Shown piece after piece: positions 13,867-60,004 of a stretch of DNA of 64,000 bases (the stretch's first letter is position 1; the number at the start of each line of letters is the position of its first letter). Source of the stretch: Candidatus Woesearchaeota archaeon (GTDB lineage Archaea > Nanobdellota > Nanobdellia > Woesearchaeales > JABIAG01); the NCBI GenBank assembly GCA_018653365.1, contig JABIAG010000001.1:326951-390950 (forward strand), given 5' to 3'. The notes below the pieces were generated by a model. It saw only the letters and a list, made by a program, of their open reading frames with translations, was not told where the DNA came from and did no database searches. Both the position numbers and the translations under genes were made by a program.

Positions 13867-14400
13867 ATGATAGGAACGAAAGAACTTCTAAGATTAGTAA
13901 AGGAGTGTAAATTAGTAGATGGGTTGTGTGATAGAGAGTTGAATAACCCAGAAGGTTCCGGATTTGATCTAAGAGTGGGAGAGGTATTTCAAATTAAAAA
14001 AGGTGAAGCATTTCTTGGAGAGGTAGATCGAAGTACACCTGATGTTAAATCAATAGCAAAATATGGAAAAGAAAAAGGAATTGTACTGAAGCCAGGAGAT
14101 TATGTATTAGTAAAAACAATAGAAACAGTAAATTTTCCAGAAAACATATCAGCAATATGCAGACCACGTACAACTTTACAACGAAGTGGAGTTATGCTAA
14201 TAACTGGAGCAACCGACCCAGGGTATTGCGGCGAGTTAACTTTTGCAATGTGCAATATGGGTAAATGTGATTTTAAATTAGAATTAGGGGCAAGAATAGT
14301 AAGAATGTTATTTTTTGAGGTAAGCGAAGTAGTTTCACAATATCGAGGACAATGGAAAGGTGGAAGAGTAAGTACTGGTGGAAAAGAAAAACAAGTTTAA
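13867..14400 (+). CDS. dcd: dCTP deaminase / dUTPase-family protein
   Basis: 177 aa. ITGATDPGYCGELTF motif, typical of Dcd/Dut beta-barrel enzymes. Confidence 0.75.
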   Translation: MIGTKELLRLVKECKLVDGLCDRELNNPEGSGFDLRVGEVFQIKKGEAFLGEVDRSTPDVKSIAKYGKEKGIVLKPGDYVLVKTIETVNFPENISAICRPRTTLQRSGVMLITGATDPGYCGELTFAMCNMGKCDFKLELGARIVRMLFFEVSEVVSQYRGQWKGGRVSTGGKEKQV

Positions 14401-23257: not shown

Positions 23258-23353
23258 GCGGGCCCCACGAGATTCATGTCATCACTTCACTTCGTTTCGT
23301 TCTGGACGAATCTCTAAGTCCCTTAAAAGAATTTGGCGGGCCCCACGAGATTC
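23258..23353. repeat. 18-bp perfect direct repeat GCGGGCCCCACGAGATTC (copies at 23258-23275 and 23336-23353); the second copy is the 3' end of tRNA-Lys
   Basis: Both copies read directly from the sequence. att-core-like duplication of a tRNA 3' end, with 78-bp spacing. Confidence 0.7.
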
Positions 23354-23426
23354 GAACTCGCAACCTTCCGATTTCTTTTTTTAAAATTAAGAGTCGGATG
23401 CTCTAACCAGATTGAGCTAGAGGCCC
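23334..23426 (-). tRNA. tRNA-Lys (anticodon CUU) with an intron of about 15 nt at the canonical 37/38 position; CCA encoded
   Basis: Reverse complement folds as acceptor GGGCCUC/GGGGCCC, D-stem GCUC/GAGC, anticodon stem UCCGA/UCGGA with loop CUCUUAA interrupted by AUUUUAAAAAAAGAA, T-arm GCGAG-UUCGAAU-CUCGU, then GCCA. Confidence 0.8.
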
Positions 23427-23533: not shown

Positions 23534-23580
23534 ACACAACATCTTGTGGTTTGAAACTGTTAGAACACAACATGTTGTAG
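23534..23580 (+). promoter_or_regulatory. two tandem NrdR-box-like 16-bp palindromes (ACACAACATCTTGTGG at 23534-23549; ACACAACATGTTGTAG at 23565-23580), 31 bp start to start, upstream of nrdR-nrdD-nrdG
   Basis: Matches the bacterial NrdR box consensus acaCwAtATaTwGtgt. Spacing of about three helical turns, as in bacterial NrdR operators. Confidence 0.55.
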
Positions 23581-23690: not shown

Positions 23691-24137
23691 ATGCGATGCC
23701 CATACTGTTTAAGTGAAAATACGAAAGTTGTAGATAAAAGAGATAGTGAAAACTTTACTAAAAGAAGAAGAGAATGTCTAAAATGCAAAAAGAGATTTAC
23801 AACACACGAACGAGTAGAAAGTGTTGATATGATTGTAGTGAAAAAAGCGGGCGAAAGAGAACGTTACGATCGAGACAAAATAAAACGAGGATTAATTAGA
23901 GCATGCGAAAAAAGACAAATTACGCTGGAACAAATTGATGATACTTTAGATAAAATAGAAACCGAATTAAGAAAATCAAACTCTACAGAAATACCCTCTT
24001 CCAAAGTCGGTAATGTAGTAATCAAATATTTAAAAAGATTAGATAAAGTAGCATACATACGATTCGCATCAGTTTACAAAGATTTCAAAGATGTAGAAGA
24101 ATTTCAAGAAGAACTAAAAACACTATTAAAGAGGTAG
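23691..24137 (+). CDS. nrdR: transcriptional repressor NrdR (zinc ribbon + ATP-cone)
   Basis: N-terminal MRCPYC...CLKC zinc ribbon, followed by an ATP-cone. 148 aa. Confidence 0.85.
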   Translation: MRCPYCLSENTKVVDKRDSENFTKRRRECLKCKKRFTTHERVESVDMIVVKKAGERERYDRDKIKRGLIRACEKRQITLEQIDDTLDKIETELRKSNSTEIPSSKVGNVVIKYLKRLDKVAYIRFASVYKDFKDVEEFQEELKTLLKR

Positions 24138-24144
24138 AGAAAAA

Positions 24145-27100
24145 ATGGCACCAGCACCACTAACAGTTGTAAAAAGAAAAAAACCCTGGGAAACAGAAAC
24201 TCGGGAAGAGGGTTATGATTCTGAAAGAATAATAGTTGCAATGCAATGCTCATTTCATGAAAAAGGAAAACAGGTTTCTGAAGACCAATTAAGAACAATG
24301 CTTCCAGCAATAGAAACAAGGTTAAAACCTACTAGAGCAGGAAAGGTGCACCGAGCTGCAATAGATCGAGCAGTAGTGGCGGTATTAAATGAATCTATGC
24401 ATGAAGAGGTGGCAGCGGAATATAAAAATTATGCAGAAACAAGATTAAAAGAATTACGAAGAATTAAAATCAAACCAGATGCAAAAGGATCAAACGCAAC
24501 AGATGCAATGTTATTAATTGAGAGTGCATCAAGTGGTACAGCATCACCTTTTGATAAGCATGCCATCTCAAAATATTTAAGAAGATCTGGCGCAGAAATG
24601 CCTGAACACCTAATTAAGAGCGTGGCAAGCGCGGTAGAAACCGATGTTCGAGAATGGATTAATGATGTTAAGGAAGATGGAGAAGTACTAGAATTAACTA
24701 CATCTGAAATACATGCACTTGCAACAGCAGAACTAATTAAACATGGAGTAAATCCTCAAGAACTTTTTGCTTCAAGAAACTTTGTGGTATCAAGAGAAAA
24801 TATAGATATGTTGATGGGCAGCAAATCTAATGAAAATGGAAATGTCAATTCAAACAATCCAGAAGCAGTTAATCTAGAAATTGCTGAATGGGTATTAAAA
24901 CGATGGGCACTGAGTTCCATATTTGAAAAAGATGTACGAACCGCACACGATGCTGGAGCAATGCATGTACATGATCTTGGGTATCCTCATAGGGTGTACT
25001 GTTCAGGACATTCACTAGAATATATAAAAAAATACGGACTAAGAGACCTACAAAACTTATCAACAAGATCATCTCCTCCAAAACACGCAATAACCTTAGT
25101 TGGACACACATCAACATTCTTGGCATCAATGCAAGCATATTATGCAGGAGCGTTAGGGATGGCTTATGTGAATCTAGCTTTTGCACCATTTCTAGAAGGT
25201 ATGTCGAGAACAAATGTTGGAAGAGTAAAAGAGGAAGTATTGGCCGCTCTTGTAGGGGATCAGAGTTTGCATGGACGATTATCAAGCTATCTTGGTGCTG
25301 CTGAAGATTGGAAAAGAGTTTCTGGAGAGTTAGCTAATCGAAGTGTATCTGATTCAGATTTAGAAACAATAGTGGGTTCGGTTTCAACAAAATTAGAGGG
25401 TAAACCAGAACTAGAACAATTTATGACTTTAGTTAATGATTATCGAGACATGCGAAGACAGGCAAAAGAACTGAATGCAATGTTAACAGACCCAACTCTT
25501 GTTGGAAGTTTAATGGAAGATATTCTTGAACGATTTGAGGGCAATGACGTGTTATCAGACGAATTCCAACGATTAATGGTACAATATACTGACATGAAAC
25601 AAATAGCGCAAAATTTTGTTTTTACACTATCACAATGCGCATTCTCTAGAGGAAGTCAAACAATATTCACTGATGCAAACTTACATACTGGAGTGCCAAC
25701 TGCACTGAAAGATATACCTATAGTAGTTCCAGGGGGAAGATATAGATTAATAGATAAAGAAACTGGAGAGACTGAAGATTTGCGAGCAAGAAAAGAACCA
25801 ACAAGTAAAGATGGGTTCATATATACTGATTCCGAAGGAAATGTATTCTTAGATGGTGAAGGAAATTTTAATTACAAACTTGCAAAAGAACAAGGAAGAC
25901 GATTTGTAACTTATGGAGATTATGAAGAGACCTCACAAGAATTTCTAGAAGCATTACTTGATGTTTACATGGAGGGAGATGAAATAGGAATGATGTTCCC
26001 ATTCCCAAAATGTGACGTACATGTAGATGCCAATACCTTCAAACACGAAAGACAAAGACAACTATTAAGAAAAACATGTGAAGTGGCAGCTAAAAATTCA
26101 AGCGCATACTTTATCTTTGACAGAGATGCAGTAACCCTTGCTGCATGTTGCAGATTAAAAACTGCAGTAGACCCAAAAGCATTAGAACATCCCGAATCAT
26201 TAAGATTTTGTGGATTCCAAAACGTAACCATAAACGTTCCACAAGCATCATACCGAGCAGCAGAAGCTGGAAATTTAAATCTTGATGGAATTATTGATGA
26301 AGTTTTAGAAACCATGGAAACAGCACTTCAAGCTCATATCCAAAAAAGAGTAAAAACAGAAGAATTAATGCAACCAGGAGGACCATTGCACCAAATTGGA
26401 AAACCAAGCATGGATGGAAATCCTTATGTTGACTTAGATAAAGCAACATACATAGTTGGAATGATTGGAGTAAATGACGCTGTCAAATTATTGACTGATT
26501 CTGAATTGCATGAAAATGAGGAATCAATGCAGGCAGGATTAGAGATCATTGCTGCAATGTATCAAAAAGCAAAAGAGATGAGTGAAAGAACAGGATGGAA
26601 AATTTCCCTAGAAGAAAGTCCTGCAGAAAGTGCAGCAAGAAACTTAGCATTAAGAGACTTACGTCATCCTGTTTACGGAAAATACGCAAAACAGGTAATA
26701 CAAGGAACTGAAGAGGACCCATACTATACAAACTCTGTACACCTAAGAGCAGATGCAAAAGATGTAGGCCCAATAGAAAGAATACAAAAACAATCAATGT
26801 TCCACCCAGTAATAGAATCTGGGGCAATTATCCATTTATTCACGGGCGAAGCAGATATAGATCCAGATGCATTATATGATTTAGTACAAAATATTTACGA
26901 AAATACACAATGTGCACAAATAACTGTATCTGGAACACATTCATTCTGTCCAGGATGTGGAACCCAAACAAGAGGAGAAGCGTTTGAATGTCCAAGATGT
27001 GGGACAGAAACAGATGTAATGCAAAAAGTTGTTGGATACAATTCTAAAATGGTAAATTGGAATGGATCAAAACGAAGAGAATCAGAGGCAAGAGGAAGAG

Positions 27101-27591
27101 GAAGTTATGCTGCAGATGCATCTGAATGTATTGCAAAAGGAGACGATCTTGCTGAAGCATTAATACCCGGACAACCCGCAGTAAAAGCAGTAGTATATGG
27201 AATAAAACATCACCATCATTGTGACTGGTGTGAAGACCTGAATGATGCAGTAACCAAATTGGTAGGAAACAATTACAAAGGAAAAGTAGATGTAGAATTT
27301 GTAGATGTAACTGCACCAGGAGTAGAGGGAAGACAAAACTTAGCAAGAGCAATGCGAGCAGGTATAAATATGGGTACTACTCCCGGAGTGGGATTCGAAT
27401 ATAATACTGAAGGAATTCCTAGGCCCGTAGATACCGTGCGACCTTTAGAAACAGAAAGTCTTGTACGACAAAATAGAGAAACTGGACACTTAGATGTGAA
27501 ATATAAATTTCTAGACAAAGCCGGAGCTCCAAAAGTAAGAAAAGCACTTGACGCGGTTCTTGCAGAAGCAGAAAGATATCTCACAACATAA
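24145..27591 (+). CDS. nrdD: anaerobic ribonucleoside-triphosphate reductase (class III, NrdD) with a C-terminal thioredoxin/NrdH-like extension
   Basis: Zn site CPGCG...CPRCG. Glycyl-radical motif KVVGYNSKMVNWNGSKRRE (RxxGY...N.GK..E). An extra C-terminal domain of about 180 aa carries HHHHCDWC, then a TPGV cis-Pro-like motif. Confidence 0.8.
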   Translation: MAPAPLTVVKRKKPWETETREEGYDSERIIVAMQCSFHEKGKQVSEDQLRTMLPAIETRLKPTRAGKVHRAAIDRAVVAVLNESMHEEVAAEYKNYAETRLKELRRIKIKPDAKGSNATDAMLLIESASSGTASPFDKHAISKYLRRSGAEMPEHLIKSVASAVETDVREWINDVKEDGEVLELTTSEIHALATAELIKHGVNPQELFASRNFVVSRENIDMLMGSKSNENGNVNSNNPEAVNLEIAEWVLKRWALSSIFEKDVRTAHDAGAMHVHDLGYPHRVYCSGHSLEYIKKYGLRDLQNLSTRSSPPKHAITLVGHTSTFLASMQAYYAGALGMAYVNLAFAPFLEGMSRTNVGRVKEEVLAALVGDQSLHGRLSSYLGAAEDWKRVSGELANRSVSDSDLETIVGSVSTKLEGKPELEQFMTLVNDYRDMRRQAKELNAMLTDPTLVGSLMEDILERFEGNDVLSDEFQRLMVQYTDMKQIAQNFVFTLSQCAFSRGSQTIFTDANLHTGVPTALKDIPIVVPGGRYRLIDKETGETEDLRARKEPTSKDGFIYTDSEGNVFLDGEGNFNYKLAKEQGRRFVTYGDYEETSQEFLEALLDVYMEGDEIGMMFPFPKCDVHVDANTFKHERQRQLLRKTCEVAAKNSSAYFIFDRDAVTLAACCRLKTAVDPKALEHPESLRFCGFQNVTINVPQASYRAAEAGNLNLDGIIDEVLETMETALQAHIQKRVKTEELMQPGGPLHQIGKPSMDGNPYVDLDKATYIVGMIGVNDAVKLLTDSELHENEESMQAGLEIIAAMYQKAKEMSERTGWKISLEESPAESAARNLALRDLRHPVYGKYAKQVIQGTEEDPYYTNSVHLRADAKDVGPIERIQKQSMFHPVIESGAIIHLFTGEADIDPDALYDLVQNIYENTQCAQITVSGTHSFCPGCGTQTRGEAFECPRCGTETDVMQKVVGYNSKMVNWNGSKRRESEARGRGSYAADASECIAKGDDLAEALIPGQPAVKAVVYGIKHHHHCDWCEDLNDAVTKLVGNNYKGKVDVEFVDVTAPGVEGRQNLARAMRAGINMGTTPGVGFEYNTEGIPRPVDTVRPLETESLVRQNRETGHLDVKYKFLDKAGAPKVRKALDAVLAEAERYLTT

Positions 27592-27592
27592 A

Positions 27593-28315
27593 ATGAATTT
27601 TGGTAACATATCTTCATCAGTGGATTTAGTCAGTTTCAGTAATGCAGAAGAACCCACAACAGTTCTATTTTATCAGGGATGCAATTTTGGGTGCGGGTAT
27701 TGTCATAATAGCAACTTATGGCATGCCGAGGACGATACGCTAACTGAAAAAGGATTAAACGCAGTACTTTCAACTGCAAGAAGCAGATGGGTAAAGCTCG
27801 TGAACGTTTCTGGGGGAGAGCCAACAGAACAATTTGGTAATTTATGGGATCTAACTGGTTATTTGAAACAACAAGGTTTTAAAGTAAAACTTGATACAAA
27901 CGGAAGTCATCCCGAAGTTCTAGAAACCTTACTTGAATATGCTTTAGTAGATTATGCTGCGATGGACATTAAAGGAACACTGGCACAGTATCCAGAAATA
28001 ACTGGGTTTAGTGATGTTGAAAAAATAAGAAACTCAATAGAGTTAGTACAATTTATGGGCAATCAAGGATTTGGTTACGAATTCAGAACAACAGCAGTTC
28101 CTGGCATTCATGGTGAATCGGAAATAAGGGAGATTGGGGAGATGTTACGCGGATCAAGAAGATATGCAATACAACAATTCAGACCTGATCTAGATGGGGG
28201 ATGCTTAAACCCCCAATTTTGCAAGAAAGAATCCTATCCTGGTGAAACATTAAGAGAGTTTGCAGAAGTAGTAAAAGACGATTTTGAAACAGTAATAGTT
28301 AGAGCAAGAGATTAG
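27593..28315 (+). CDS. nrdG: anaerobic RNR activating enzyme NrdG (radical SAM)
   Basis: CNFGCGYC (CxxxCxxC) motif. Start taken at the ATG immediately after the nrdD stop (the ORF track start 27548 overlaps nrdD). Confidence 0.85.
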   Translation: MNFGNISSSVDLVSFSNAEEPTTVLFYQGCNFGCGYCHNSNLWHAEDDTLTEKGLNAVLSTARSRWVKLVNVSGGEPTEQFGNLWDLTGYLKQQGFKVKLDTNGSHPEVLETLLEYALVDYAAMDIKGTLAQYPEITGFSDVEKIRNSIELVQFMGNQGFGYEFRTTAVPGIHGESEIREIGEMLRGSRRYAIQQFRPDLDGGCLNPQFCKKESYPGETLREFAEVVKDDFETVIVRARD

Positions 28316-50451: not shown

Positions 50452-50685
50452 ATGAAAAGAACTTACGACAAAATACGGAAATCAATCCTTGCAGCAATTG
50501 ATGGACCGCAAAAAATAATAAATGAAATTGCTAGAGTATCTAAGGTTAATTGGAAAACAGTACAAAGACATCTAACCTATTTTAAAGGAATGGGATTCAT
50601 AGAAGAAACATTCTCTTCACCGTATGTAAGAATATTTGAAATAACCGAAAAAGGAAAACAGGAGTTAAAAGAATGGAAATCCTAA
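50452..50685 (+). CDS. small winged-helix DNA-binding protein
   Basis: 77 aa. wHTH-like ...IINEIARVSKVNWKTVQRHLTYFKGMGFIEE. Overlaps the downstream glycogen synthase by 13 nt. Confidence 0.5.
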   Translation: MKRTYDKIRKSILAAIDGPQKIINEIARVSKVNWKTVQRHLTYFKGMGFIEETFSSPYVRIFEITEKGKQELKEWKS

Positions 50686-51875
50686 TGTTTGGATGGGAAT
50701 TTCCTCCAATGAAATCAGGGGGGTTAGGAACTGCTTGTTATGATCTATGTAAGGGTCTGTTTAAACAAGGAACCAAGGTAACTTTTGTAGTTCCAAGACT
50801 GCCCAAAACAATAAAAAGTAACTTTGTAAAATTATTAGGCGCAAATCAATATGCTAAATTAACTGAAGTGGATTCAATACTAACACCGTACATGACATCT
50901 AACCAATATTTGGATGTGTACGATAATCTTGATGTTGCAACAAAACAAAACTATGGGAAAAATCTTTTAGCTGAGGTAAAAAGATATACTCAAGCTGCAA
51001 TAAAGATAACTGAAAATGAAAATTTTGACATAATACATGTACATGACTGGATGACCTATGAAGCAGGACAGATCGCAAAAGAAAAATCAGGAAAGTCACT
51101 AGTTGCACATATTCATGCAACAGAGTTTGATCGAACAGGGGGCAATCCTAACATGGAAATTTCCCACAAAGAATATTTGGGATTGAATGCAGCAGATATG
51201 ATAATTGCAAACTCGGAATACACTAAAGATAATGTAATCAAAAACTATAAGGTCGATGCAGATAAGTTACGAGTTGTACACTGGGGAATAGCTGAAGACA
51301 GCCCAAGCTATCATTTGAATGCAGAATCTCCATTTAAAGACAGTAAAGTTGTTTTATTTTTAGGTAGAGTGACGATACAAAAAGGACCTGACTATTTTGT
51401 TGATATGGCAGAAAAAGTAAAAAAATACGTACCAAATGTTAAGTTTGTTTTTGCAGGAGATGGAGACATGTTTCCAAAAATTGTAGATCAGGTAATGGAA
51501 CGAGATCTAGCTGAGAATTTCGTATTCACTGGATTCTTAAGGGGAGAAGACGTACATAAAGCATTTCAAATGGCAGATTTATACGCAATGCCCTCTGTAT
51601 CTGAACCGTTTGGGTTAGTAGCACTAGAATCAATAAAAAACGGAACTCCTGTTTTGCTCTCAAAACAATCAGGAGTTGCAGAAGTATTAACCAATGCCTT
51701 TAAAGTTAATTTTTGGGATGTAGATGAAATGGCAAATAAAATAGTTTCATTTCTTAACCATCCTGCATTAAGTCATGATCTAAAAGCAAACACAATTGAA
51801 GAAGCAAAAGGATTTAATTTAGATGACCCTGCCAAAAAATGTTTGGACTGTTATGACGAGGTAAAAAAATGGTAG
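50673..51875 (+). CDS. glgA: archaeal-type glycogen synthase (GT5, Pyrococcus GS-like)
   Basis: FGWEFPPMKSGGLGTA (KxGGL motif) and SEPFGLVALESI match the P. abyssi glycogen synthase. Confidence 0.65.
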   Translation: MEILMFGWEFPPMKSGGLGTACYDLCKGLFKQGTKVTFVVPRLPKTIKSNFVKLLGANQYAKLTEVDSILTPYMTSNQYLDVYDNLDVATKQNYGKNLLAEVKRYTQAAIKITENENFDIIHVHDWMTYEAGQIAKEKSGKSLVAHIHATEFDRTGGNPNMEISHKEYLGLNAADMIIANSEYTKDNVIKNYKVDADKLRVVHWGIAEDSPSYHLNAESPFKDSKVVLFLGRVTIQKGPDYFVDMAEKVKKYVPNVKFVFAGDGDMFPKIVDQVMERDLAENFVFTGFLRGEDVHKAFQMADLYAMPSVSEPFGLVALESIKNGTPVLLSKQSGVAEVLTNAFKVNFWDVDEMANKIVSFLNHPALSHDLKANTIEEAKGFNLDDPAKKCLDCYDEVKKW

Positions 51876-53086
51876 ATATATGTTTTTATTTTCAGGTACA
51901 CCAACCCTTTAGAATGAAAAAATACTCTATTTTTCAAATAGGTAATGATGAAAAATATTTTGATTCAACAAAAAATCAAGAAATAATGCAAAAAGTAACA
52001 AAAAAATGTTATTTACCAACAAATAAATTGATGTTAGAACTTTTAAGAAAACATCCCGAATTCAAAATTGCATACTCCATTTCTGGAACTGCAATAGATC
52101 AATTTGAAAAATATAGTCCTGAAGTATTAGATACATTCAAAGAGCTAGCAAAAACAAAACAAGTTGAATTCTTGGATGAAACATACCACCATAGCTTGTC
52201 ATTTTTATACTCTAAAAAAGAATTTTACGACCAAGTAGAAATGCACACCCAGAAAATGCAAAAACTATTTGGAGTAAAACCCAAAGTTTTCAGAAACACC
52301 GAGTTAATATATAATAATGAACTTGCAGAATACGTAGAAAAAATGGGTTATAAAGGAATACTTGCCGAAGGTGCAGATCATGTTTTAGGCTGGAAAAGTC
52401 CGAATTTCTTATATCAACCAAGAAATACAAAAAAAATAAAATTATTATTAAAAAATTATAAATTAAGTGACGATATCGCATTTAGATTCTCAGATAAATC
52501 CTGGCCCGAACATCCACTTACAACAAAAAAGTTCGGGGGTTGGTTAAACAAAGTAAATGGAAATGGAATCTGTGTTAACTTATTTATGGATTATGAAACG
52601 TTTGGAGAGCATCAGTGGAGCGACACAGGAATATTCAAATTTATGAAAGGTTTACCTGCAGAACTATTAAAGCATCCTGATAACCAGTTTAAAACTCCGC
52701 TGGAGGTAGTAAACAGTCATGAAGCAGTAGACGAATTACATGTACCTCACACTGTAAGCTGGGCAGATACTGAACGAGATGTTTCAGCATGGTTAGGAAA
52801 CAAAATGCAACAAGCAGCAATATCTCGACTATATGCAATAGAAGAAGAGGTAAAACAATCAGAAGATAAAAAATTACTAGAAACCTGGAGAAGATTAACA
52901 ACATCAGACCATTTTTACTATATGTGCACTAAATGGTTCTCAGATGGAGATGTACACAAATACTTTAATCCCTATGAAACCCCCTACGATTCATTCATAA
53001 ACTTCATGAATATACTAAACGACATGCTTATCAGACTTAAGACTTCAAATTCACAAACAGGGATAGAAAAAGCTAAAGTATATTAA
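51869..53086 (+). CDS. glycoside hydrolase family 57 protein (alpha-amylase/glucanotransferase-like)
   Basis: N-terminal FQVHQP motif. DYETFGEH acidic catalytic region. Confidence 0.55.
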   Translation: MVDICFYFQVHQPFRMKKYSIFQIGNDEKYFDSTKNQEIMQKVTKKCYLPTNKLMLELLRKHPEFKIAYSISGTAIDQFEKYSPEVLDTFKELAKTKQVEFLDETYHHSLSFLYSKKEFYDQVEMHTQKMQKLFGVKPKVFRNTELIYNNELAEYVEKMGYKGILAEGADHVLGWKSPNFLYQPRNTKKIKLLLKNYKLSDDIAFRFSDKSWPEHPLTTKKFGGWLNKVNGNGICVNLFMDYETFGEHQWSDTGIFKFMKGLPAELLKHPDNQFKTPLEVVNSHEAVDELHVPHTVSWADTERDVSAWLGNKMQQAAISRLYAIEEEVKQSEDKKLLETWRRLTTSDHFYYMCTKWFSDGDVHKYFNPYETPYDSFINFMNILNDMLIRLKTSNSQTGIEKAKVY

Positions 53087-53114
53087 TGAGAAAAATAAAA
53101 AGAATAAAAAAGAG

Positions 53115-53573
53115 GTGAAAATGGCAAAGAAAACAGCAAAAAAAACTGCCAAAAAGAGTTCTAAGAAGAAAGTAGTCCGAAAACCAAAGAAAGCAGCAAA
53201 AATTGTAAAAAAGGTAAAAGTAAAACTTGTTAAGAAAAAAGTGGCAGCTAAAAAAGCTAAAACTCGAGTTGCAGTAACCGTAACAAGAAAAAGATTAGGA
53301 ACTGCACCCGAAGAATACCATTTTGTATTAAATGACGGGAATCGACTGAAAAACATACAGGAATTAACTGATGCTCTAGAAACAATGAGTGAAGATGTAT
53401 TCAAATATCACGCAAATGAATTCAAAAACGATTTTGCAAATTGGATCAGTGATGTGTTTGAGGAAAGCGATTTAGCAGAAGAAATAAAAAAAGCAAAGAG
53501 CAGAATAGAAACAAGAATAAAACTCTTGCAACGATTAGTAGATGAAGTAGTAAAACAAGGAAGAAAAAAATAA
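53115..53573 (+). CDS. protein with histone-H1-like lysine-rich N-terminal tail plus a helical C-terminal domain; hypothetical
   Basis: The first 55 aa are more than 50% Lys/Ala (AKKTAKKTAKK...). Sits inside the glycogen cluster. Confidence 0.4.
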   Translation: MKMAKKTAKKTAKKSSKKKVVRKPKKAAKIVKKVKVKLVKKKVAAKKAKTRVAVTVTRKRLGTAPEEYHFVLNDGNRLKNIQELTDALETMSEDVFKYHANEFKNDFANWISDVFEESDLAEEIKKAKSRIETRIKLLQRLVDEVVKQGRKK

Positions 53574-53585
53574 AAAAAGAGGGTT

Positions 53586-55385
53586 ATGATGAGTGAAAAG
53601 GCAAATGCAGATATATTACTAGAAGTAAGTTGGGAAGTTTGTAATAAAGTTGGTGGAATAAACACGGTTATTAAATCAAAAACTCCCCGAATACTTGAAC
53701 AGTATGGAGATAAAAAATATATTGCCATAGGCCCATATTTTGCAAATAAAGTTGCTGGAGAGTTCGAAGAGCTTCCTCACCCAAAAACATTTCACAAAAT
53801 ATGTAATGATCTTGAAAAAGAAGGAATAAAGTTACATTTTGGAAAATGGCTCATAAAAGGCGAACCTAAAACAATTCTACTAGATTTTCAAGATTATCTC
53901 AAGGCTGGAGACCAAATAAAAAAAGAGTTATGGGAAAAAAATGGCATAGATTCATTACGATCAGGATCAGATTATGGAGACCCCTTAATCTGGGGATATG
54001 CTGTAGGAAAGGTAATACAAAAAATAACTACTATTTTTCCAGACAAAAAATTAGTTGCACAATTCCATGAATGGCTAGCAGGATCAGCACTACTTTATCT
54101 AAAAAATAATAATGTTAAAATCTCAACCGTGTTCACAACACACGCAACAATACTTGGAAGAACACTAGCATCAAGCAATGTGGATCTGTATAAATATATC
54201 AAAAAATTTGATCCAACTAAAGAGGCATACAATTATGGAATAGAAGCCAAATTTTTACTGGAAAAGCAAGCAGCACAAAAATCAGATGTGTTTACAACAG
54301 TATCAGAAATAACAGGAATTGAAGCACAATACTTACTTGGTAGAAAGCCAGATGTCTTATTACCTAACGGATTAGACATGGAAAAATTTCCTACTTTTGA
54401 AGAAGCATCAATACAACATAGAATTACGAGAAACAGAATAAAATCTTTCTTATCATACTACTTTTATCCCTATTATCAAGTTAATATGGGTGATGTGCTA
54501 ATATACTTTTTAGCAGGAAGATACGAATTTAAAGATAAAGGAATAGATGTTTTCATCTCAGCATTATCAAAATTAAATGCTAAAATGAAAAAAGATAAGG
54601 TTAAAAAAACGGTAGTAGCATTCATTTGGGTTCCTGCAGATGCAGAAGCAATTAAACAACAAATTTTGATTAACAAAACAAACTTTGGGGATATAAAAGA
54701 CGAGCTAGCGGATGAAATGTCAGAAATAAATGAACGAATAATGTTTAACATATTAGCGGGTAAAGAGATCAAAACTAGTACTATTTTTGATTCTGCATTT
54801 ATTGCAACAACCAAGAAAAAAATAATGAAGTTTAAAGCAAAAGGTAACCCTGCAATGTCAACACACACATTGAGAAATAAAAATGACATAATCTTAAAAG
54901 AATTAGCAAAAGCAGGACTAGACAATTCTGAAAAAAATCCAGTGAAAGTAATATTTTATCCAATATATTTAACTGGAGCAGATGGTTTGCTGGACTTGAA
55001 CTATTATGAATGTATGCAGGGAAGTCATTTGGGAGTGTTCCCATCATTTTATGAACCCTGGGGATATACACCACTAGAAGCAGGAGCACTAGGCACAAGT
55101 TCAGTAACAACAGACCTAGCAGGATTTGGAAGATACATACAAAAAACTAAACTCAACCCAAAAACTCCCGGCGTTTTTGTACTAGAACGTGAAGGAAAAA
55201 GTGATGAAGCAATAAGTAATTCTTTAACTGACCTTATGTTCAAGTTTGCTAACTTTACTCGACATGAAAGAGTACAAAATAAAATTAATGCAAAAGCCAT
55301 AGCTGCGAAAGCAGATTGGAAATTTTTAATTAAAGAATACATCAAAGCACATAATTTAGCATTGAGGAAGATAGATTGGACCTAA
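53586..55385 (+). CDS. glycogen synthase, eukaryotic-like GT3 family
   Basis: N-terminal EVSWEVCNKVGGINTVIKSK, matching the GT3 glycogen synthase motif EVAWEVANKVGGIYTV. 599 aa. Confidence 0.8.
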   Translation: MMSEKANADILLEVSWEVCNKVGGINTVIKSKTPRILEQYGDKKYIAIGPYFANKVAGEFEELPHPKTFHKICNDLEKEGIKLHFGKWLIKGEPKTILLDFQDYLKAGDQIKKELWEKNGIDSLRSGSDYGDPLIWGYAVGKVIQKITTIFPDKKLVAQFHEWLAGSALLYLKNNNVKISTVFTTHATILGRTLASSNVDLYKYIKKFDPTKEAYNYGIEAKFLLEKQAAQKSDVFTTVSEITGIEAQYLLGRKPDVLLPNGLDMEKFPTFEEASIQHRITRNRIKSFLSYYFYPYYQVNMGDVLIYFLAGRYEFKDKGIDVFISALSKLNAKMKKDKVKKTVVAFIWVPADAEAIKQQILINKTNFGDIKDELADEMSEINERIMFNILAGKEIKTSTIFDSAFIATTKKKIMKFKAKGNPAMSTHTLRNKNDIILKELAKAGLDNSEKNPVKVIFYPIYLTGADGLLDLNYYECMQGSHLGVFPSFYEPWGYTPLEAGALGTSSVTTDLAGFGRYIQKTKLNPKTPGVFVLEREGKSDEAISNSLTDLMFKFANFTRHERVQNKINAKAIAAKADWKFLIKEYIKAHNLALRKIDWT

Positions 55386-56308
55386 GACGAGATTATTTTT
55401 TGGATAGATGGGTAATTATTAATCCTAAAAGAGGATTAAGACCACATCAGTTTACACATAAACCGAATCCAGGAAAAGCAAAAAAAGATTATTTTGCACC
55501 AGGAAATGAAATGACCACCCCAATGGAACTTGGGAGAGTTGGAACGGATAAAAAATGGGAAATAATGTGGTTCATGAATAAATTTCCAGCAGTACAAACA
55601 GACGGGGATTACACTATTCAAAGACACAACAAGTTTTACACTTTTTCTGCATCATACGGGTGGCACGAAGTAATCGTTGAAACACCTTCAGGAACAAAAC
55701 AATTATACAGTTTTACAAAAAAACAAGTAATGAAGCTATTGCGCGTGTATCAACAAAGGATCAAGGACGTACGTGGAAAAGAGGGAGTCAAATATGCCTC
55801 TCTGTTTAAAAATCATGGACCTGATGCAGGAACATCAATCGCGCACTCACATTCACAATTAATCGGCTATAATTTAGTGCCTGAAATAATAAAGCAAAAG
55901 TTAAAAAAATCACGAAAACACGGAAAGTGTTTGTATTGTGAAGTAATAGAGGCAGAAAAAGATTCTGATCGAAGATGTTTTGAAAATGAAATGTTTATAG
56001 CCTTTACTCCTTACGCATCTAGATTTAATTATGAAATTTGGCTAATGCCTAAAAAACACATATCTGACTTTAGTAAGTTAAATCCTTGGCAACTAGACCA
56101 ATTTTGTGATATATTTATGTTAATCTTAAAGAAATTAAAGAAAATAGGGTGTAGCTTTAATTTTTACTTTCAAAATTATGGCAAAATGCACTTTCATGTC
56201 GAGTTTTGTCCACGTATAGCAACCTGGGCAGGATTTGAATTTTCAACAGACACAATTATTAACTCAATGTCACCAGAAGAAGCAGCAAAGTTTTATCGGG
56301 ATAAATAA
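55376..56308 (+). CDS. galactose-1-phosphate uridylyltransferase-like HIT-family nucleotidyltransferase
   Basis: Zn Cys pair CLYCE. HIT-like AHSHSQL motif. 310 aa. Confidence 0.6.
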   Translation: MDLRRDYFLDRWVIINPKRGLRPHQFTHKPNPGKAKKDYFAPGNEMTTPMELGRVGTDKKWEIMWFMNKFPAVQTDGDYTIQRHNKFYTFSASYGWHEVIVETPSGTKQLYSFTKKQVMKLLRVYQQRIKDVRGKEGVKYASLFKNHGPDAGTSIAHSHSQLIGYNLVPEIIKQKLKKSRKHGKCLYCEVIEAEKDSDRRCFENEMFIAFTPYASRFNYEIWLMPKKHISDFSKLNPWQLDQFCDIFMLILKKLKKIGCSFNFYFQNYGKMHFHVEFCPRIATWAGFEFSTDTIINSMSPEEAAKFYRDK

Positions 56309-56323
56309 TTTTTTGGGGGAATT

Positions 56324-58033
56324 ATGAAGGTAACTTACAAACTAGGACAGCATGCCCTTTCTAAAGAAGGCAACGGAAACTTACTTTTAACTAATTCAAA
56401 AGGGGGATTTCTTAATTTAGGCCAGCCAACATCTAAGTTTCAGGGCTGGTTCATAAAAGATTCTGGAGTGTTTAAAATACTTGAAGAAATTAAATTAGAG
56501 GGAGAGGTTAAAGAGCTTATTAGTGAAGTATACCAAATAAAGCGTAAGAAAAGTGTTACAGAAAGTTATATGCTACCTAAAAACTTTAATTCATTAGTTT
56601 ACGAACTTAGTAAAGAGAGCGAGGTAGAATTAGTATTTGATGTACGAAAAGCATACGATCTTTCTGAAGAGGGAAGAGAATATAAACTAGATAAATACGG
56701 GAAAAAAATAATTCTTTGTTATCCAAAAGAAAAGATTTACGTTGTTATCGGGAATGTTAGTAAGTTTGAAGAAAAAAATGAATGGAAGGAATATGCGTAT
56801 TTAGAAGATGAAAAAAGAAATTCCCCTCCCTTCTCAAGATATAATTATCTTGCACTGAAGTTCAAATGTAAAAAAATAGTAATAACTGCAGGATGTAATA
56901 GAGTAAAAGTATTAGAAGAAAACGAACTAATCTTAAAAGACTTAAATAAAATAAAAAAAGCAGAAAAAAATTCTGTTAAACTTGTTTCTAAAGCTAAAAA
57001 GAATTTTGCAGTTAATCTAGCATCCAATTCAGTACTTGGACTTGTTGTAGAAGAGGGGATATACGCAGGGCTTCCTTGGTTCTTTCAAAAATGGACAAGA
57101 GATGAAATGATCTCACTCAAGTCACTAACATTAATTGGAGAAGAACAACTAACCAAAAAAATATTATTAGAACGAATAAAACAAATTAATAGCAATGGAA
57201 GGTTGCCAAACCGAATAGGGTTAGATGGGCTGGACTCTGCAGACTCAATAGGCTGGATGTTTCTACGATTTAATGATGTAATGAAATTACTTGATAAAAA
57301 AGAAAAAGAATTACTGAAAGTAGGATTAAAAAATTCAATAGAATTGATAATCAAAAACTATCATTTACACGGATTTTTTGTTAATGGACCAAAAGAAACC
57401 TGGATGGATACAGACTTTGGAGGAGATGTGCGGGGAGGGGTTCGTATTGAGATACAAGCACTAATGATAAACATGTTTGATCTTACGTTTAAGTTAACTA
57501 AATCTCAAATTTATGGAAAGCTACGTGATAGTTTAATACATAATGTTAAAGAGAAAATGTTTGATGGCATGTTACACGATGGAGCAGGGGACAGGACTGT
57601 ACGTCCAAACGTGTTTATTGCGTATTATGTTTATCCCAAATTGTTAAGTAAGAAAGAGTGGGGTATAGTTTTTGAAACTGCTTTAGATAAATTATGGTTA
57701 GACTGGGGTGGACTGAGTACAATAGATAAGAATAATTTATTATTTTGTTCCGAATACACTGGTGAGGATAATAAAAGTTATCATCGAGGGGATAGTTGGT
57801 ATTGGATAAATTGTTTAGCTGCAGTATGTATGCTAAAAGTTAATAAGAAAAAGTTCAAAGCATATGTTGATATGATATATTCTGCTACTGAACAGAATAT
57901 TTTGTTGCAAGGTGGATTGGGATGTTGTTCGGAAGTAAGTTCTGCTTCTAGTCAGACTGCAGATGGTTGCTTAAACCAAGCCTGGAGTAACGCAATGTTT
58001 ATAGAGTTATGGAAAGAACTTAATAAAAAATGA
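56324..58033 (+). CDS. glycogen debranching enzyme (amylo-alpha-1,6-glucosidase, GDE C-terminal-domain type)
   Basis: GLPWFFQKWTRDEMISL matches the GDE signature. (alpha/alpha)6-like length. Confidence 0.65.
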   Translation: MKVTYKLGQHALSKEGNGNLLLTNSKGGFLNLGQPTSKFQGWFIKDSGVFKILEEIKLEGEVKELISEVYQIKRKKSVTESYMLPKNFNSLVYELSKESEVELVFDVRKAYDLSEEGREYKLDKYGKKIILCYPKEKIYVVIGNVSKFEEKNEWKEYAYLEDEKRNSPPFSRYNYLALKFKCKKIVITAGCNRVKVLEENELILKDLNKIKKAEKNSVKLVSKAKKNFAVNLASNSVLGLVVEEGIYAGLPWFFQKWTRDEMISLKSLTLIGEEQLTKKILLERIKQINSNGRLPNRIGLDGLDSADSIGWMFLRFNDVMKLLDKKEKELLKVGLKNSIELIIKNYHLHGFFVNGPKETWMDTDFGGDVRGGVRIEIQALMINMFDLTFKLTKSQIYGKLRDSLIHNVKEKMFDGMLHDGAGDRTVRPNVFIAYYVYPKLLSKKEWGIVFETALDKLWLDWGGLSTIDKNNLLFCSEYTGEDNKSYHRGDSWYWINCLAAVCMLKVNKKKFKAYVDMIYSATEQNILLQGGLGCCSEVSSASSQTADGCLNQAWSNAMFIELWKELNKK

Positions 58034-58965
58034 AACTCGGAAGTCTAACAGTTAAAAACAAATTTCTTTTAGCACCAATGGATATGTATGCAGATAGTGC
58101 ATTTCGTAAATTATGTCATGATTATAACTGTGGATATTCTTGTACTGAATTAATCGCGACAGCAGGCTTTATACGTAAAAATGAAAGCTTTAGACGAAAA
58201 GTTGATCTGCACGTTAAAGGTGGGTTACAATTTGTTACTAATTCTACTTCTGAACTAAAAGAATCCATAAGAATAGTAAACGAAAAAGAATTTTATGCAG
58301 GATTAGGTAATGTAAATTGTATAGACATTAATTTAGGATGTCCTTCCCTGAAAATGATGAATCAGAATATGGGCTCAGCATTACTAAACCAACCAAAATT
58401 AGTTCGTTCATTGTTTAAGGTAATGAAAAAACATTCTTCTCTTTCTGTATCTGCTAAGATTCGTTTAGCTATTAATTCCAAACACAAAAAACAATCCAAA
58501 CCTTATCTGAAAATAGCACAAATAGCAAAAGAAGAAGGCATAGATTTTATTATAGTTCATGGTCGAACAGCTGGACAAATGTACTCGGGAGAGGTAGATG
58601 TTGAGGCAATTAAAGAGTTGAGTGAAAAAGTAGATATTCCGTTAGTTGGAAATGGGAATATAATTGATGAAGAAAGTTGTAACAACTTTGAATTTTGCGA
58701 TGCCGTAATGATTGGAAGAGAGGCACTGAAACGACCGTTCATATTTTCATTGTTACAGGGTAAAAAGTTTGATGATGAAAAAGAGAAGAAAAAATGTGTT
58801 AAACAGTATTTGAAGTATGCAAAAGAGTTAGATACTGGATTTCAACACATAAAAATTCACACTCAAGCATTTTTGAGAGGAATAGAGGGAAGTAAAGAGA
58901 TCATTCGTGCACTAACTCATACAAAAACACTTGAAGATATTAAAGAATGCCTAAAACAACTATAA
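58030..58965 (+). CDS. tRNA-dihydrouridine synthase-like TIM-barrel flavoprotein
   Basis: LAPMDMYADSAFRKLC is Dus-like. Has the conserved Cys region. Confidence 0.55.
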   Translation: MKLGSLTVKNKFLLAPMDMYADSAFRKLCHDYNCGYSCTELIATAGFIRKNESFRRKVDLHVKGGLQFVTNSTSELKESIRIVNEKEFYAGLGNVNCIDINLGCPSLKMMNQNMGSALLNQPKLVRSLFKVMKKHSSLSVSAKIRLAINSKHKKQSKPYLKIAQIAKEEGIDFIIVHGRTAGQMYSGEVDVEAIKELSEKVDIPLVGNGNIIDEESCNNFEFCDAVMIGREALKRPFIFSLLQGKKFDDEKEKKKCVKQYLKYAKELDTGFQHIKIHTQAFLRGIEGSKEIIRALTHTKTLEDIKECLKQL

Positions 58966-60004
58966 TTCCTAAAAGTAACATTACTATCCCCGCAATTAAA
59001 TGAAGCATTCTAAGATTTTTATCTTTCCAAGCATTAGCTTTTTTAACATCGGTTTTACCTATTGAAATAAGTACTGTGATAACAATTAAAGGAATTACAA
59101 AAAATAAATTATAAATTAAAAGAATGGGGATTGCACTCATTCGAGTAGTTTTTTCTGCTAATAGCCCTAAAATAAATAAGTATGGGCCACCGGTACAAGG
59201 GAGTTCAAATAAACAAACAACAAAACCAATAAGGAAAGCCCCCCAGGGAGTTGTAACCTTTCTTAGTAATTTTTTAAGCGTAGGACGCCATTTTCGAGGA
59301 ATTTCCATAACAAATCCTAACTTGGCATACCAAAAGTAATCTTTTAAATTAGCTAAACCAATAAGTATTGCAAGAACGCCCACAATTTTATAAAACCATA
59401 ATGACAAACCACTAACTTGAATGGCAGAAAAAAGACCTAAACCAAATAAAAAATAAATTACATAAATTGCAATGGTAAATGCAAAGCCTGCTTTTATGGC
59501 TCGCTTTTTATTACCTGCAGCTAAAAGAGCACTTAATAATATGAGTAAAACAGCAATAGCACAGGGATTGATGGAATCAACTAGTGCAGCACCAATAACA
59601 GTTAATAAAGAAAGAGACGAAATTTCTTGTTTTTCTGTTTGATTTAATAAGGGACAAGAAATTCCTGGATTGTTTTTGATGACGGGTTTTAGTTTTGAAT
59701 TAATCATGGAATCGCCAATGAGAATTTCATCTCCAACAATTACTGTTGGAACACCACGAAGATCTTTATCAACATCAAATTGATTAAAAAAATTTTGTAA
59801 CAACCCAATATTTGATCTATTATTATAAATCTCAAAAACATGTACTTCAACAGAGGAATTTGCTTTTAATTCATCCATTAAGGGATATGCTTTAGCACAA
59901 TGTTGACAACCATCTCCATGAAAAAAATAAACACAGGTATCTGCTAGAGCAATTCCTGAAAAGATAATAATAAAAATTAGGGGTATGATGATTTTGAGTT
60001 TCAT
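58940..60004 (-). CDS. thiol:disulfide interchange membrane protein (DsbD/CcdA-like) with N-terminal thioredoxin-like CxxC domain
   Basis: N-terminal CQHC. Membrane domain with conserved Cys in CAIAVL and LPCTGGPYL. Confidence 0.55.
   Translation of the reverse strand: MKLKIIIPLIFIIIFSGIALADTCVYFFHGDGCQHCAKAYPLMDELKANSSVEVHVFEIYNNRSNIGLLQNFFNQFDVDKDLRGVPTVIVGDEILIGDSMINSKLKPVIKNNPGISCPLLNQTEKQEISSLSLLTVIGAALVDSINPCAIAVLLILLSALLAAGNKKRAIKAGFAFTIAIYVIYFLFGLGLFSAIQVSGLSLWFYKIVGVLAILIGLANLKDYFWYAKLGFVMEIPRKWRPTLKKLLRKVTTPWGAFLIGFVVCLFELPCTGGPYLFILGLLAEKTTRMSAIPILLIYNLFFVIPLIVITVLISIGKTDVKKANAWKDKNLRMLHLIAGIVMLLLGIIVVLGIL

Follow-up and report, generated by a model that had tools for sequence, protein, structure and literature searches.

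Fusions of redoxins to RNR components, one Grx:NrdD included, are already present in the literature (PMC6187632). In the Grx::ATP-cone::NrdB protein of Facklamia ignava the fused Grx is an efficient and functional RNR reductant (Rozman Grinberg et al. 2018, PMC6187632), and one Grx:NrdD fusion has been recorded in RefSeq, an uncharacterised protein from Lachnospiraceae bacterium TWA4 that belongs to subclass NrdDd (PMC6187632). The NrdD3 operon of Methanosarcina barkeri, as it is summarised from Wei et al. 2015 in PMC9176816, contains an NrdH-like redoxin together with a ferredoxin:disulfide reductase. The strand-A reducing cysteine is conserved across all RNRs (PMC4493059), and the finger-loop motif of NrdD has been divided into the classes MGCR, MCCR, SCCR and QCCR (PMC9669993). 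According to PMC9669993, a methionine in this loop marks formate chemistry, and its absence is needed for the use of thiols only. The NrdD2 group (Wei et al. 2014) is outlined in PMC9669993, PMC4493059, PMC4390871 and PMC9176816 as having a double-cysteine xCCR motif, an active-site glutamate, no finger-loop methionine and use of thioredoxin. In the summaries of the thiol-dependent enzyme, Glu495 of T. maritima NrdD, with Glu438 as its N. bacilliformis counterpart, is proposed as the proton donor.

What is at stake in these systems is the route by which electrons enter the buried active site of thiol-dependent class III RNRs, which is closed by the glycyl-radical domain. In the structures of T. 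maritima NrdD the double-cysteine motif lies outside the active site. The archaeal locus described here is probably a case in which a thiol-dependent, NrdD2-type class III RNR has captured its dedicated, operon-encoded Trx-fold redoxin as a C-terminal domain that re-reduces the enzyme.

The fused gene and its operon

The window is the whole stretch of 64,000 nt that was analysed, positions 326,951-390,950 of the forward strand of contig JABIAG010000001.1 from Candidatus Woesearchaeota archaeon (GCA_018653365.1); all feature coordinates below are window positions on the + strand. The nrdD fusion gene (24145..27591) is an uninterrupted open reading frame of 1148 aa, and its product is identical in sequence to protein P0001 (Candidatus Woesearchaeota archaeon HN592_02585), which is carried by 32 contigs. 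Pfam NRDD (PF13597) covers residues 230-983 with E 1.7e-107 and 360.9 bits (cut-off 26.2), and the TIGR02487 score of 327.5 bits exceeds its cut-off (326.35), which places the protein among the class III RNRs (NrdD) by profile. The glycyl-radical motif behind a four-cysteine Zn ribbon and the adjacent nrdG indicate the same class. The N-terminal part contains an ATP-cone at residues 20-100 (24202..24444; Pfam ATP-cone E 2.7e-7).

The first gene of the operon, nrdR (23691..24137), encodes a repressor of 148 aa with a zinc ribbon and an ATP-cone (Pfam Zn_ribbon_NrdR E 2.4e-14; ATP-cone E 5.2e-21). A repeat search and the sequence itself revealed, about 110 nt upstream of nrdR, a pair of 16-nt imperfect palindromes (23534..23580), ACACAACATCTTGTGG at 23534-23549 and ACACAACATGTTGTAG at 23565-23580, separated by 31 nt from start to start, which by their likeness to the consensus are putative NrdR boxes. 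Downstream of nrdD lies the gene of the radical SAM activase nrdG (27593..28315; TIGR02495 NrdG2 140.7 bits, cut-off 131.15; Pfam Radical_SAM and Fer4_12); its likely ATG is located 1 nt past the nrdD stop, and the TTG start at 27548 given by the ORF finder overlaps nrdD. The order nrdR-nrdD-nrdG is found also in four other archaeal loci (L001-L004), where nrdG has 234-237 aa and begins 2-6 nt after nrdD. A Pfam scan that covered 44 ORFs of the window, and the flanks of these four loci, yielded neither a thioredoxin reductase nor a ferredoxin:disulfide reductase.

A catalytic core with thiol-type motifs

The strand-A cysteine corresponds to Cys286 (25000..25002, in VYCSGH), which is aligned by HMMER to the Tyr124-Cys125 pair of T. 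maritima NrdD (4COI) and is invariant in 33 sequences. The putative finger loop carries the motif ACCR (Ala667-Cys668-Cys669-Arg670, 26143..26154), a double cysteine with no upstream methionine; Ala667 stands at the methionine position, and ACCRL is present in 120 of the 120 best homologues. Direct alignment of this segment to solved NrdDs (SCCR in T. maritima) failed, and the profile alignment begins only at the following strand, so the double-cysteine assignment is based on the motif and on its location 18 residues ahead of the strand that matches T. maritima 366-377. The finger-loop region is also poorly modelled (pLDDT 53-62 in the full-length AF2 model). Glu823 (26611..26613, in SLEESPAE) occupies the position of T. 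maritima Glu495, residue 495 of Q9WYL6, in pairwise and profile alignments and is invariant; the same position is Tyr in T4 and Leu in P. copri. Further downstream, the Zn ribbon of the glycyl-radical domain is made of CPGC 935-938 and CPRC 949-952 (26947..27000), all four cysteines being invariant, and Gly964 (27034..27036, in VVGYNS), likewise invariant, is the glycyl-radical site, which in the alignments coincides with RxxGY in NrdD from P. copri and from T. maritima.

The sequence-only reading had posed the question whether this NrdD retains formate-binding residues or a thiol-type active site. The formate-type MGCR is missing, and the thiol set of ACCR, Glu823 and Cys286 stands in its place. 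All three sequence features of NrdD2 are present, namely the xCCR double cysteine, a glutamate aligned with Glu495 of the T. maritima enzyme and no methionine in the finger loop, and by these active-site motifs the catalytic core is assigned to the thiol-dependent type, NrdD2. Because ACCR occurs without methionine, with Glu823 at the place of Glu495 and Cys286 at the place of T. maritima Cys125, the core would need a protein thiol as reductant. The core additionally contains a lineage-specific helical insertion of about residues 355-480 (25207..25584), recognised by homologue comparison and in the structure model. It is absent from the bacterial relatives, much shorter in three homologues (P0004, P0006, P0007) and modelled as six helices in the full-length AF2 prediction; it plays no part in the redoxin mechanism.

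The C-terminal domain and its stand-alone homologue

The tail after the radical glycine has a median length of 47 residues in 118 homologous NrdDs, whereas in seven fused proteins it reaches 172-188. In the sequence-only reading this tail was described as an extra domain of about 180 aa, starting at 27050, and three strings were quoted, all of which are found in the protein: KVVGYNSKMVNWNGSKRRE, which holds Gly964, VVYGIKHHHHCDWCEDL with His1022-1025, Cys1026 and Cys1029 (27208-27231), and TTPGV with Pro1080 (27382-27384). The extra domain is indeed there, but position 27050 falls within the ordinary C-terminal helix of NrdD and the folded part has about 138 aa instead of 180. The extra part consists of a linker of about 27 aa, residues 984-1010 (27094..27174), and of a folded domain, residues 1011-1148 (27175..27588). 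The linker is modelled with low to moderate confidence (pLDDT below 50 at model residues 1-19 of the domain model and 54-77 in the full-length AF2 model) and differs in length between homologues, as seen from alignment indels. The NRDD match stops at residue 983, and residues 984-1148 had zero matches to Pfam or NCBIfam in a single-sequence scan.

The predicted structure of the domain has the topology β-α-β-α-β-β-α, which agrees with the thioredoxin fold suggested earlier. The putative redox-active motif Cys1026-Asp-Trp-Cys1029 (27220..27231) opens helix α1 of the model (the cysteines are model residues 47 and 50, the helix runs from 48) and is aligned with the active-site CxxC of 1J08 and DsbA. 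Pro1080 (27382..27384) is model residue 101, directly before β3, which starts at 102, so the model puts it at the cis-proline position of the Trx fold; it is aligned with the RIP of the stand-alone redoxins described below. Cys1026, Cys1029 and Pro1080 are invariant in 8 of 8 aligned fusion proteins, whose domains share 24-73% identity, and a ninth fused protein (L005) has a CxxC as well (CEWC), therefore the motif is more than a chance occurrence. The two residues within CxxC differ widely (DW, EW, SF, GW, SS, GD), hence the redox potential appears to be loosely conserved.

As regards the family of the domain, single-sequence searches failed to connect it with Trx, Grx or NrdH, but a profile built on the domain reaches the Pyrococcus glutaredoxin-like protein/protein disulfide oxidoreductase (E 2.4e-6 and 1.4e-5) and DsbA (E 5e-6), in each case with CxxC aligned. 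Pfam Glrx-like (PF05768) gave weak, sub-threshold matches in 4 of 7 domain members (best E 5e-4), and the query domain had no Pfam or NCBIfam match, Thioredoxin (PF00085) and Glutaredoxin (PF00462) included, even at E <= 1 to 10. Thioredoxins are marked by WCGPC, and glutaredoxins by CPYC and GSH-binding motifs; the active-site motif of the present domain is C[DESG][WFSD]C. The hallmarks of NrdH-redoxins are the active site C[VM]QC and the motif WSGFRP, both missing from the sequence, and no NrdH or Grx model of Pfam or NCBIfam was matched. The domain represents a distinct, divergent family with the Trx fold, outside NrdH and Grx. The best single-sequence phmmer match in the PDB, the C-terminal domain of eIF2-alpha (E 2.9e-4, in a domain-duplicated construct), is a chance match: its per-domain E is only 2-5, other eIF2-alpha entries have E 0.5-1.7, and it is reproduced by neither profile nor structure searches.

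The run His1022-His1025 (cat cac cat cat, 27208..27219) is located in the loop between β1 and CxxC. Its presence beside CxxC was noticed correctly, but it is no family trait, being a three-residue insertion found solely in the query, P0002 and L005. Four histidines directly before CxxC in these three sequences may bring to mind a Trx-fold module of structural, regulatory or metal-binding character that lacks disulfide-exchange activity, in which the His4-CxxC loop would bind Zn, Ni or an Fe-S cluster and might, for instance, sense metals or redox state or promote oligomerisation. Such a function would suit the variable residues inside CxxC, and non-catalytic Trx-fold proteins (ERp27, PDI b' domains and KaiB) are among the top structural matches of the domain. 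We nevertheless consider it improbable, since His4 is missing in 6 of 9 fused sequences and in 6 of 6 stand-alone homologues while both cysteines and the proline are invariant, CxxC is typically lost in non-catalytic Trx folds, and the domain is paired with a core that requires thiols.

The stand-alone homologues come from bacterial sister NrdDs, which are unfused and have about 900 aa. Between their nrdD and nrdG an unannotated CxxC ORF of 127-147 aa is present at each of six loci. These ORFs share V[FY]GKxGCxKC and RIP, one stand-alone protein of this kind is MBT3375063.1, and the loci in which the family occurs bear the labels Lentisphaerota, Gemmatimonadota, Bdellovibrionota and Deltaproteobacteria. 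The family is aligned with the fused domain by hhalign at 96% with E 4e-9 over 117 columns, i.e. full length, and the HMM matches are reciprocal. The fused domain belongs to this unnamed family of nrdD-nrdG operon redoxins by profile homology, by CxxC and proline, and by its location directly behind the NrdD core and ahead of nrdG. A separate redoxin gene is absent from the called genes listed for the archaeal fused loci L001-L004, where nrdG directly follows nrdD; the nrdD-nrdG arrangement in L005 and in the window is like that of L001-L004. The separate, operon-encoded redoxin of the bacterial sister clade is reported here as new.

A separate gene at the same position in bacterial relatives could also mean that a missed stop codon or a frameshift has merged nrdD with a separate downstream redoxin gene. 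The chance of such an artefact is negligible and this explanation is already effectively refuted: the frame is unbroken in the window and also in nine different sequences that stem from independent metagenomes and MAGs and have 24-78% domain identity, each stopping just before nrdG, and the query protein was found on 32 contigs. The fusion itself is very rare, being present in 2 of 185,579 species genomes. An exhaustive phmmer search of 1.84 billion representatives with the domain returned only NrdD fusions (P0005, P0121) and two repetitive false positives.

Proposed role and comparison with known systems

It had been proposed from the start that the fusion gives the RNR a built-in reductant. 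This proposal has gained support: the three checks suggested with it, on the predicted structure, on the profile searches and on the active-site residues, all turned out in its favour, and bacterial relatives carry the domain as a gene in its own right, placed between nrdD and nrdG. Because these relatives encode it as a gene of the operon, the tail domain most likely acts as electron donor to the enzyme that carries it. In each turnover, two reducing equivalents would be taken from Cys286 on strand A and from Cys668 or Cys669, leaving a disulfide. The domain 1011-1148, tethered by the flexible linker of about 27 residues straight after the glycyl-radical domain, would then re-reduce this disulfide by thiol-disulfide exchange via Cys1026 and Cys1029, and the oxidised domain would in turn be re-reduced by some cellular reductase. 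A redox-active domain of this kind, with the core disulfide as its target, could react within its own subunit or across subunits, and an upstream electron donor would have to supply it.

The position of the domain, right behind the Zn ribbon and the glycyl-radical domain, and the constant location of the gene or domain between nrdD and nrdG might instead suggest that a redox-active Trx serves in maintenance or activation, holding Cys935, 938, 949 and 952 of the Zn ribbon and glycyl-radical domain, or further cysteines, in the reduced state needed for radical installation by NrdG, the reductant of turnover being another one. This seems unlikely, as the redoxin is specific to the thiol-type clade (ACCR and Glu in 120 of 120 homologues), which fits a role in turnover, and activation alone would leave its absence from formate-type NrdDs unexplained. 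Turnover and activation roles can coexist. A rather doubtful extension of the built-in-reductant reading is that the fused domain and its stand-alone homologues form a family, overlooked until now, that is devoted to delivering electrons to class III RNRs and corresponds in function to NrdH. In genome-reduced DPANN archaea this family would do without a canonical thioredoxin reductase and draw on a low-potential donor (e.g. ferredoxin-linked), and in the His4 subclade a metal at the His4-CxxC loop might act as a gate.

A reductant tethered some 27 residues behind the glycyl-radical domain would constitute a natural 1:1, self-contained system, usable for trapping a mixed disulfide of redoxin and RNR and for solving the encounter complex. 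If a function is assigned to the unannotated "hypothetical protein" family between nrdD and nrdG, the annotation of these operons and the prediction of reductants in anaerobes would be improved. For DPANN archaea the question arises which reductase feeds the synthesis of DNA precursors.

Among the systems described so far, the NrdD2 enzymes of Neisseria bacilliformis and T. maritima (4COI/4U3E), working with free thioredoxin, are similar to the query in the double-cysteine loop without methionine, the glutamate, the strand-A cysteine, the Zn-ribbon glycyl-radical domain and NrdG. The query has ACCR and not SCCR, is much larger with its helical insertion, and only about 20% of it can be aligned to T. 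maritima NrdD (E 7e-6); its redoxin is covalent in archaea or operon-encoded in the bacterial sister clade, in contrast to a housekeeping thioredoxin. For NrdD3 of M. barkeri, too, a small Trx-fold redoxin of its own is encoded alongside the class III RNR and supplies its electrons (PMC9176816). NrdD3 is characterised by QCCR/A and no glutamate (PMC9669993), the query clade by ACCR with glutamate, and the M. barkeri operon includes a reductase whereas none accompanies the archaeal operon in L001-L004.

The fusions of F. ignava and TWA4 also join a redoxin to an RNR subunit; there it is a canonical Grx, found by standard models and written as N-terminal, while the query domain follows the glycyl-radical domain at the C-terminus and represents a separate family, invisible to Pfam and NCBIfam. 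The PDO/Grx-like proteins of P. horikoshii (1J08) and P. furiosus (1A8L) are the best profile matches of the domain, but over about 50 residues only (β1, CxxC, α1, β2). PDO is composed of two Trx units, and the query domain is distinguished by an extra β-hairpin between β3 and the last helix, a feature which it has in common only with the stand-alone operon redoxins.

Architecture, fold and distribution of the C-terminal domain

The nrdD gene (24145..27591, +; 1148 aa) belongs to a compact operon with nrdR (23691..24137, +) and nrdG (+), the latter running from a likely ATG at 27593, 1 nt past the nrdD stop, to 28315. Its product is identical to a Candidatus Woesearchaeota MAG protein annotated as hypothetical (32 contigs, the largest of 1.11 Mb), and the window combines neighbours of archaeal type (PTH2, ArgRS, S-layer protein, eRF1, diphthamide synthesis) with a G+C content of 28-40%. 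Pfam recognises an ATP-cone (residues 20-100) and the NRDD core (230-983) in this NrdD, and residues 984-1148 have no match in Pfam or NCBIfam. Past the radical glycine a median of 47 residues is found in 118 homologous NrdDs versus 172-188 in seven fused proteins, and the closest bacterial homologues of ~900 aa stop ~45 residues past it; the extension therefore consists of a linker of ~27 residues (984-1010), modelled with low to moderate confidence and variable in length among homologues, and a folded domain of ~138 residues (1011-1148). The extra domain had been noticed in a sequence-only reading, and this observation is confirmed together with all the motifs quoted there (Gly964 in VVGYNS, His1022-1025, Cys1026-Asp-Trp-Cys1029, and Pro1080 in TTPGV); its proposed start at 27050 falls within the ordinary C-terminal helix of NrdD. 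A fusion produced artificially, by a mis-joined gene, is ruled out because the reading frames are continuous in independent assemblies.

In the AlphaFold2 model of the domain, built from a seven-sequence alignment (pLDDT 80.3, pTM 0.74), strand b1 (model residues 34-40) is followed by the CxxC (47-50) at the start of helix a1 (48-64), b2 (69-75), a2 (80-92), Pro101 of the model directly preceding b3 (102-107), a b-hairpin (125-142) and a long helix at the C-terminus. The full-length model contains the same elements, at pLDDT 85-95. A single-sequence search with the domain gave no convincing match; a profile of seven homologues matched the P. horikoshii glutaredoxin-like protein (E 2.4e-6), S. 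aureus DsbA (E 5e-6) and P. furiosus protein disulfide oxidoreductase (E 1.4e-5), each with the active-site CxxC in register, and Pfam Glrx-like was matched weakly by four of the seven members. On the model and these profile matches, the domain belongs to the thioredoxin-fold superfamily as a divergent member, outside the curated Trx, Grx and NrdH families; of the thioredoxin/NrdH-like assignment made earlier, the fold stands and the membership in those families does not.

The fused architecture is common to nine distinct sequences (the window protein, its relatives P0002-P0007, the fragment P0121 and the protein of locus L005), with 24-78% identity over the domain. Both cysteines of the CxxC and the proline are invariant in all eight aligned fused sequences, and the CxxC is also present in L005; the residues inside the motif vary (DW, EW, SF, GW, SS, GD). 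The His4 run is a three-residue insertion in the b1-CxxC loop, restricted to the window protein, P0002 and L005. As a less probable rival explanation, the domain could be a non-catalytic or metal-binding module of thioredoxin fold. Among 1.84 billion cluster representatives searched exhaustively with phmmer, NrdD proteins were the only ones to contain the domain, and a scan of 185,579 GTDB species, one genome each, gave two fused loci. Both genomes (L005, L006) are titled 'uncultured Methanosarcinales archaeon'; the window protein, syntenic with them and of the same architecture, is labelled Candidatus Woesearchaeota, and one of the two labels is probably wrong.

The NrdD core and the putative operon-encoded redoxin

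Class III RNRs are divided by their active-site residues: an MGCR finger loop belongs to formate-dependent enzymes, thioredoxin-dependent NrdD2 have a second finger-loop Cys and a Glu where T. maritima has Glu495, exclusively thiol-dependent NrdD2 are without the finger-loop Met, and NrdD3 carry QCCR/A without the Glu (PMC9669993, PMC4493059). The window protein has ACCR at 667-670, Glu823 aligned with Tm Glu495 (Tyr in T4, Leu in P. copri) and Tyr285-Cys286 aligned with Tm Tyr124-Cys125; ACCRL and [LI]EE[ST]PAE recur in all 120 best homologues. By these motifs the core is of the type predicted to need a protein dithiol, with a finger-loop segment (pLDDT 53-62) that is not directly alignable to solved structures. 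Such a core was required by the earlier hypothesis of a built-in reductant, and its three residue signatures (ACCR, Glu823, Cys286) are in place.

Two further cysteines, Cys623 (26011-26013) and Cys689 (26209-26211), are invariant throughout the ACCR clade. In the full-length model Cys689 stands at the start of strand E688-697 after the finger loop; if T4 Cys290 is placed on Cys669 and T4 residue 315 on Val694, Cys689 adjoins the T4 Asn311 position, near the site of the second reducing cysteine of class I/II RNRs. The core also carries a helical insertion of ~125 residues (25207-25584, residues ~355-480; six predicted helices) between FLEGMS and MKQIAQ, present in P0001 (the identical database protein), P0002, P0003 and P0005, reduced to ~35 residues in P0004, P0006 and P0007, and absent from bacterial relatives; P. 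copri NrdD has an insertion at the same site.

Six bacterial loci with unfused nrdD were examined (Lentisphaerota, Bdellovibrionota, Deltaproteobacteria, Gemmatimonadota and two unlabelled), and in each an ORF of 127-147 aa lies between nrdD and nrdG. These ORFs have no Pfam match on record in the six loci and are called "hypothetical protein" wherever named; their shared motifs are V[FY]GKxGCxKC and RxP, the latter invariant and in most cases RIP. When their profile was compared with that of the fused domains, 117 columns aligned at 96% probability (E 4e-9); this is approximately the full length of both profiles and takes in CxxC and Pro as well as the hairpin region and the final helix; HMM searches were reciprocal, and the redoxin profiles found no match among other NrdDs. 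Archaeal fused loci are without a separate redoxin gene, and their nrdG starts a few nt past the nrdD stop. On the simplest reading, a dedicated redoxin encoded in the operon became joined to the C-terminal end of NrdD in a single archaeal lineage. Independently of the fold, the gene order links the domain to NrdD and NrdG in function.

Surroundings of the nrd operon

In the window and in L001-L004, the archaeal loci with listed called genes, nrdR lies directly 5' of the fused nrdD; the six bacterial sister loci show no adjacent nrdR. Upstream of the window operon two near-identical 16-nt imperfect palindromes, ACACAACATCTTGTGG (23534-23549) and ACACAACATGTTGTAG (23565-23580), stand 31 nt apart and presumably resemble the canonical tandem NrdR-box pair; if they are NrdR boxes, autoregulated NrdR control would operate in an archaeon. 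PTH2, on the opposite strand, is next after nrdG, and a dCTP deaminase/dUTPase-like gene (13867-14400, +) lies 13 kb away; nrdG has a dut/dcd gene as its direct 3' neighbour in relatives L001-L004, L011 and L012.

A tRNA-Lys(CTT) (23334-23426, -) suggests an intron because it is 93 nt long. Its end recurs 78 nt away as an exact 18-nt copy, GCGGGCCCCACGAGATTC (23258-23275), which could represent a second tRNA, split or with an intron, missed by ARAGORN, or a duplicated tRNA end, e.g. an integration scar. A glycogen-type carbohydrate cluster (50673-58033, +) comprises a GT4 glycosyltransferase, GH57, a GalT/HIT-like protein, an amylo-1,6-glucosidase (GDE_C) and a eukaryote-like glycogen synthase (PF05693, E 3e-155); a GH15 gene is at 62282-63277.

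Proposed mechanism and known systems

The thioredoxin fold, the thiol-type core and the operon-encoded homologue support, at the level of sequence, the earlier interpretation of the domain as a built-in reductant. In each turnover Cys286 would become disulfide-bonded to one finger-loop Cys, following the scheme suggested for N. bacilliformis NrdD; the tethered domain may then reduce this bond via Cys1026 and Cys1029 and would itself be recycled by a separate reductase. Neither the 44 window ORFs scanned nor the genes adjoining the archaeal operons include a reductase candidate. The only other thiol-redox candidate seen in the window is a 354-aa protein (58940-60004, -) with a DsbD_2/CcdA-like transmembrane thiol-disulfide transporter domain (residues 136-349) and ~135 N-terminal residues without domain assignment. 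A 309-aa Pyr_redox_2 protein of thioredoxin-reductase size, encoded two genes downstream of nrdG in the Lentisphaerota locus L008 (10672-11601), is a possible partner of the stand-alone redoxin; none was seen in the other five bacterial loci. According to a less probable rival explanation, the domain would act in activation or maintenance of the Zn-ribbon and glycyl-radical domain.

Read as carrying its own reductant, the fused NrdD provides a natural case of a tethered redoxin in which access to the class III active site can be studied, and a function is suggested for the hypothetical-protein family between nrdD and nrdG. A full-text search of a partial literature collection found no paper describing a C-terminal redoxin-NrdD family. 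The self-reducing RNR is already known as an idea: Facklamia ignava has a Grx::ATP-cone::NrdB that works as its own reductant, a Glutaredoxin:NrdD is listed as one protein in Lachnospiraceae bacterium TWA4 (PMC6187632), and M. barkeri NrdD3 is served by a dedicated NrdH-like redoxin (cited in PMC9176816). In contrast to these fusions and partners, the domain reported here is C-terminal, behind the glycyl-radical domain, its family is recognised by no curated model, and several bacterial phyla also encode members of the same family as an operon gene without annotation.
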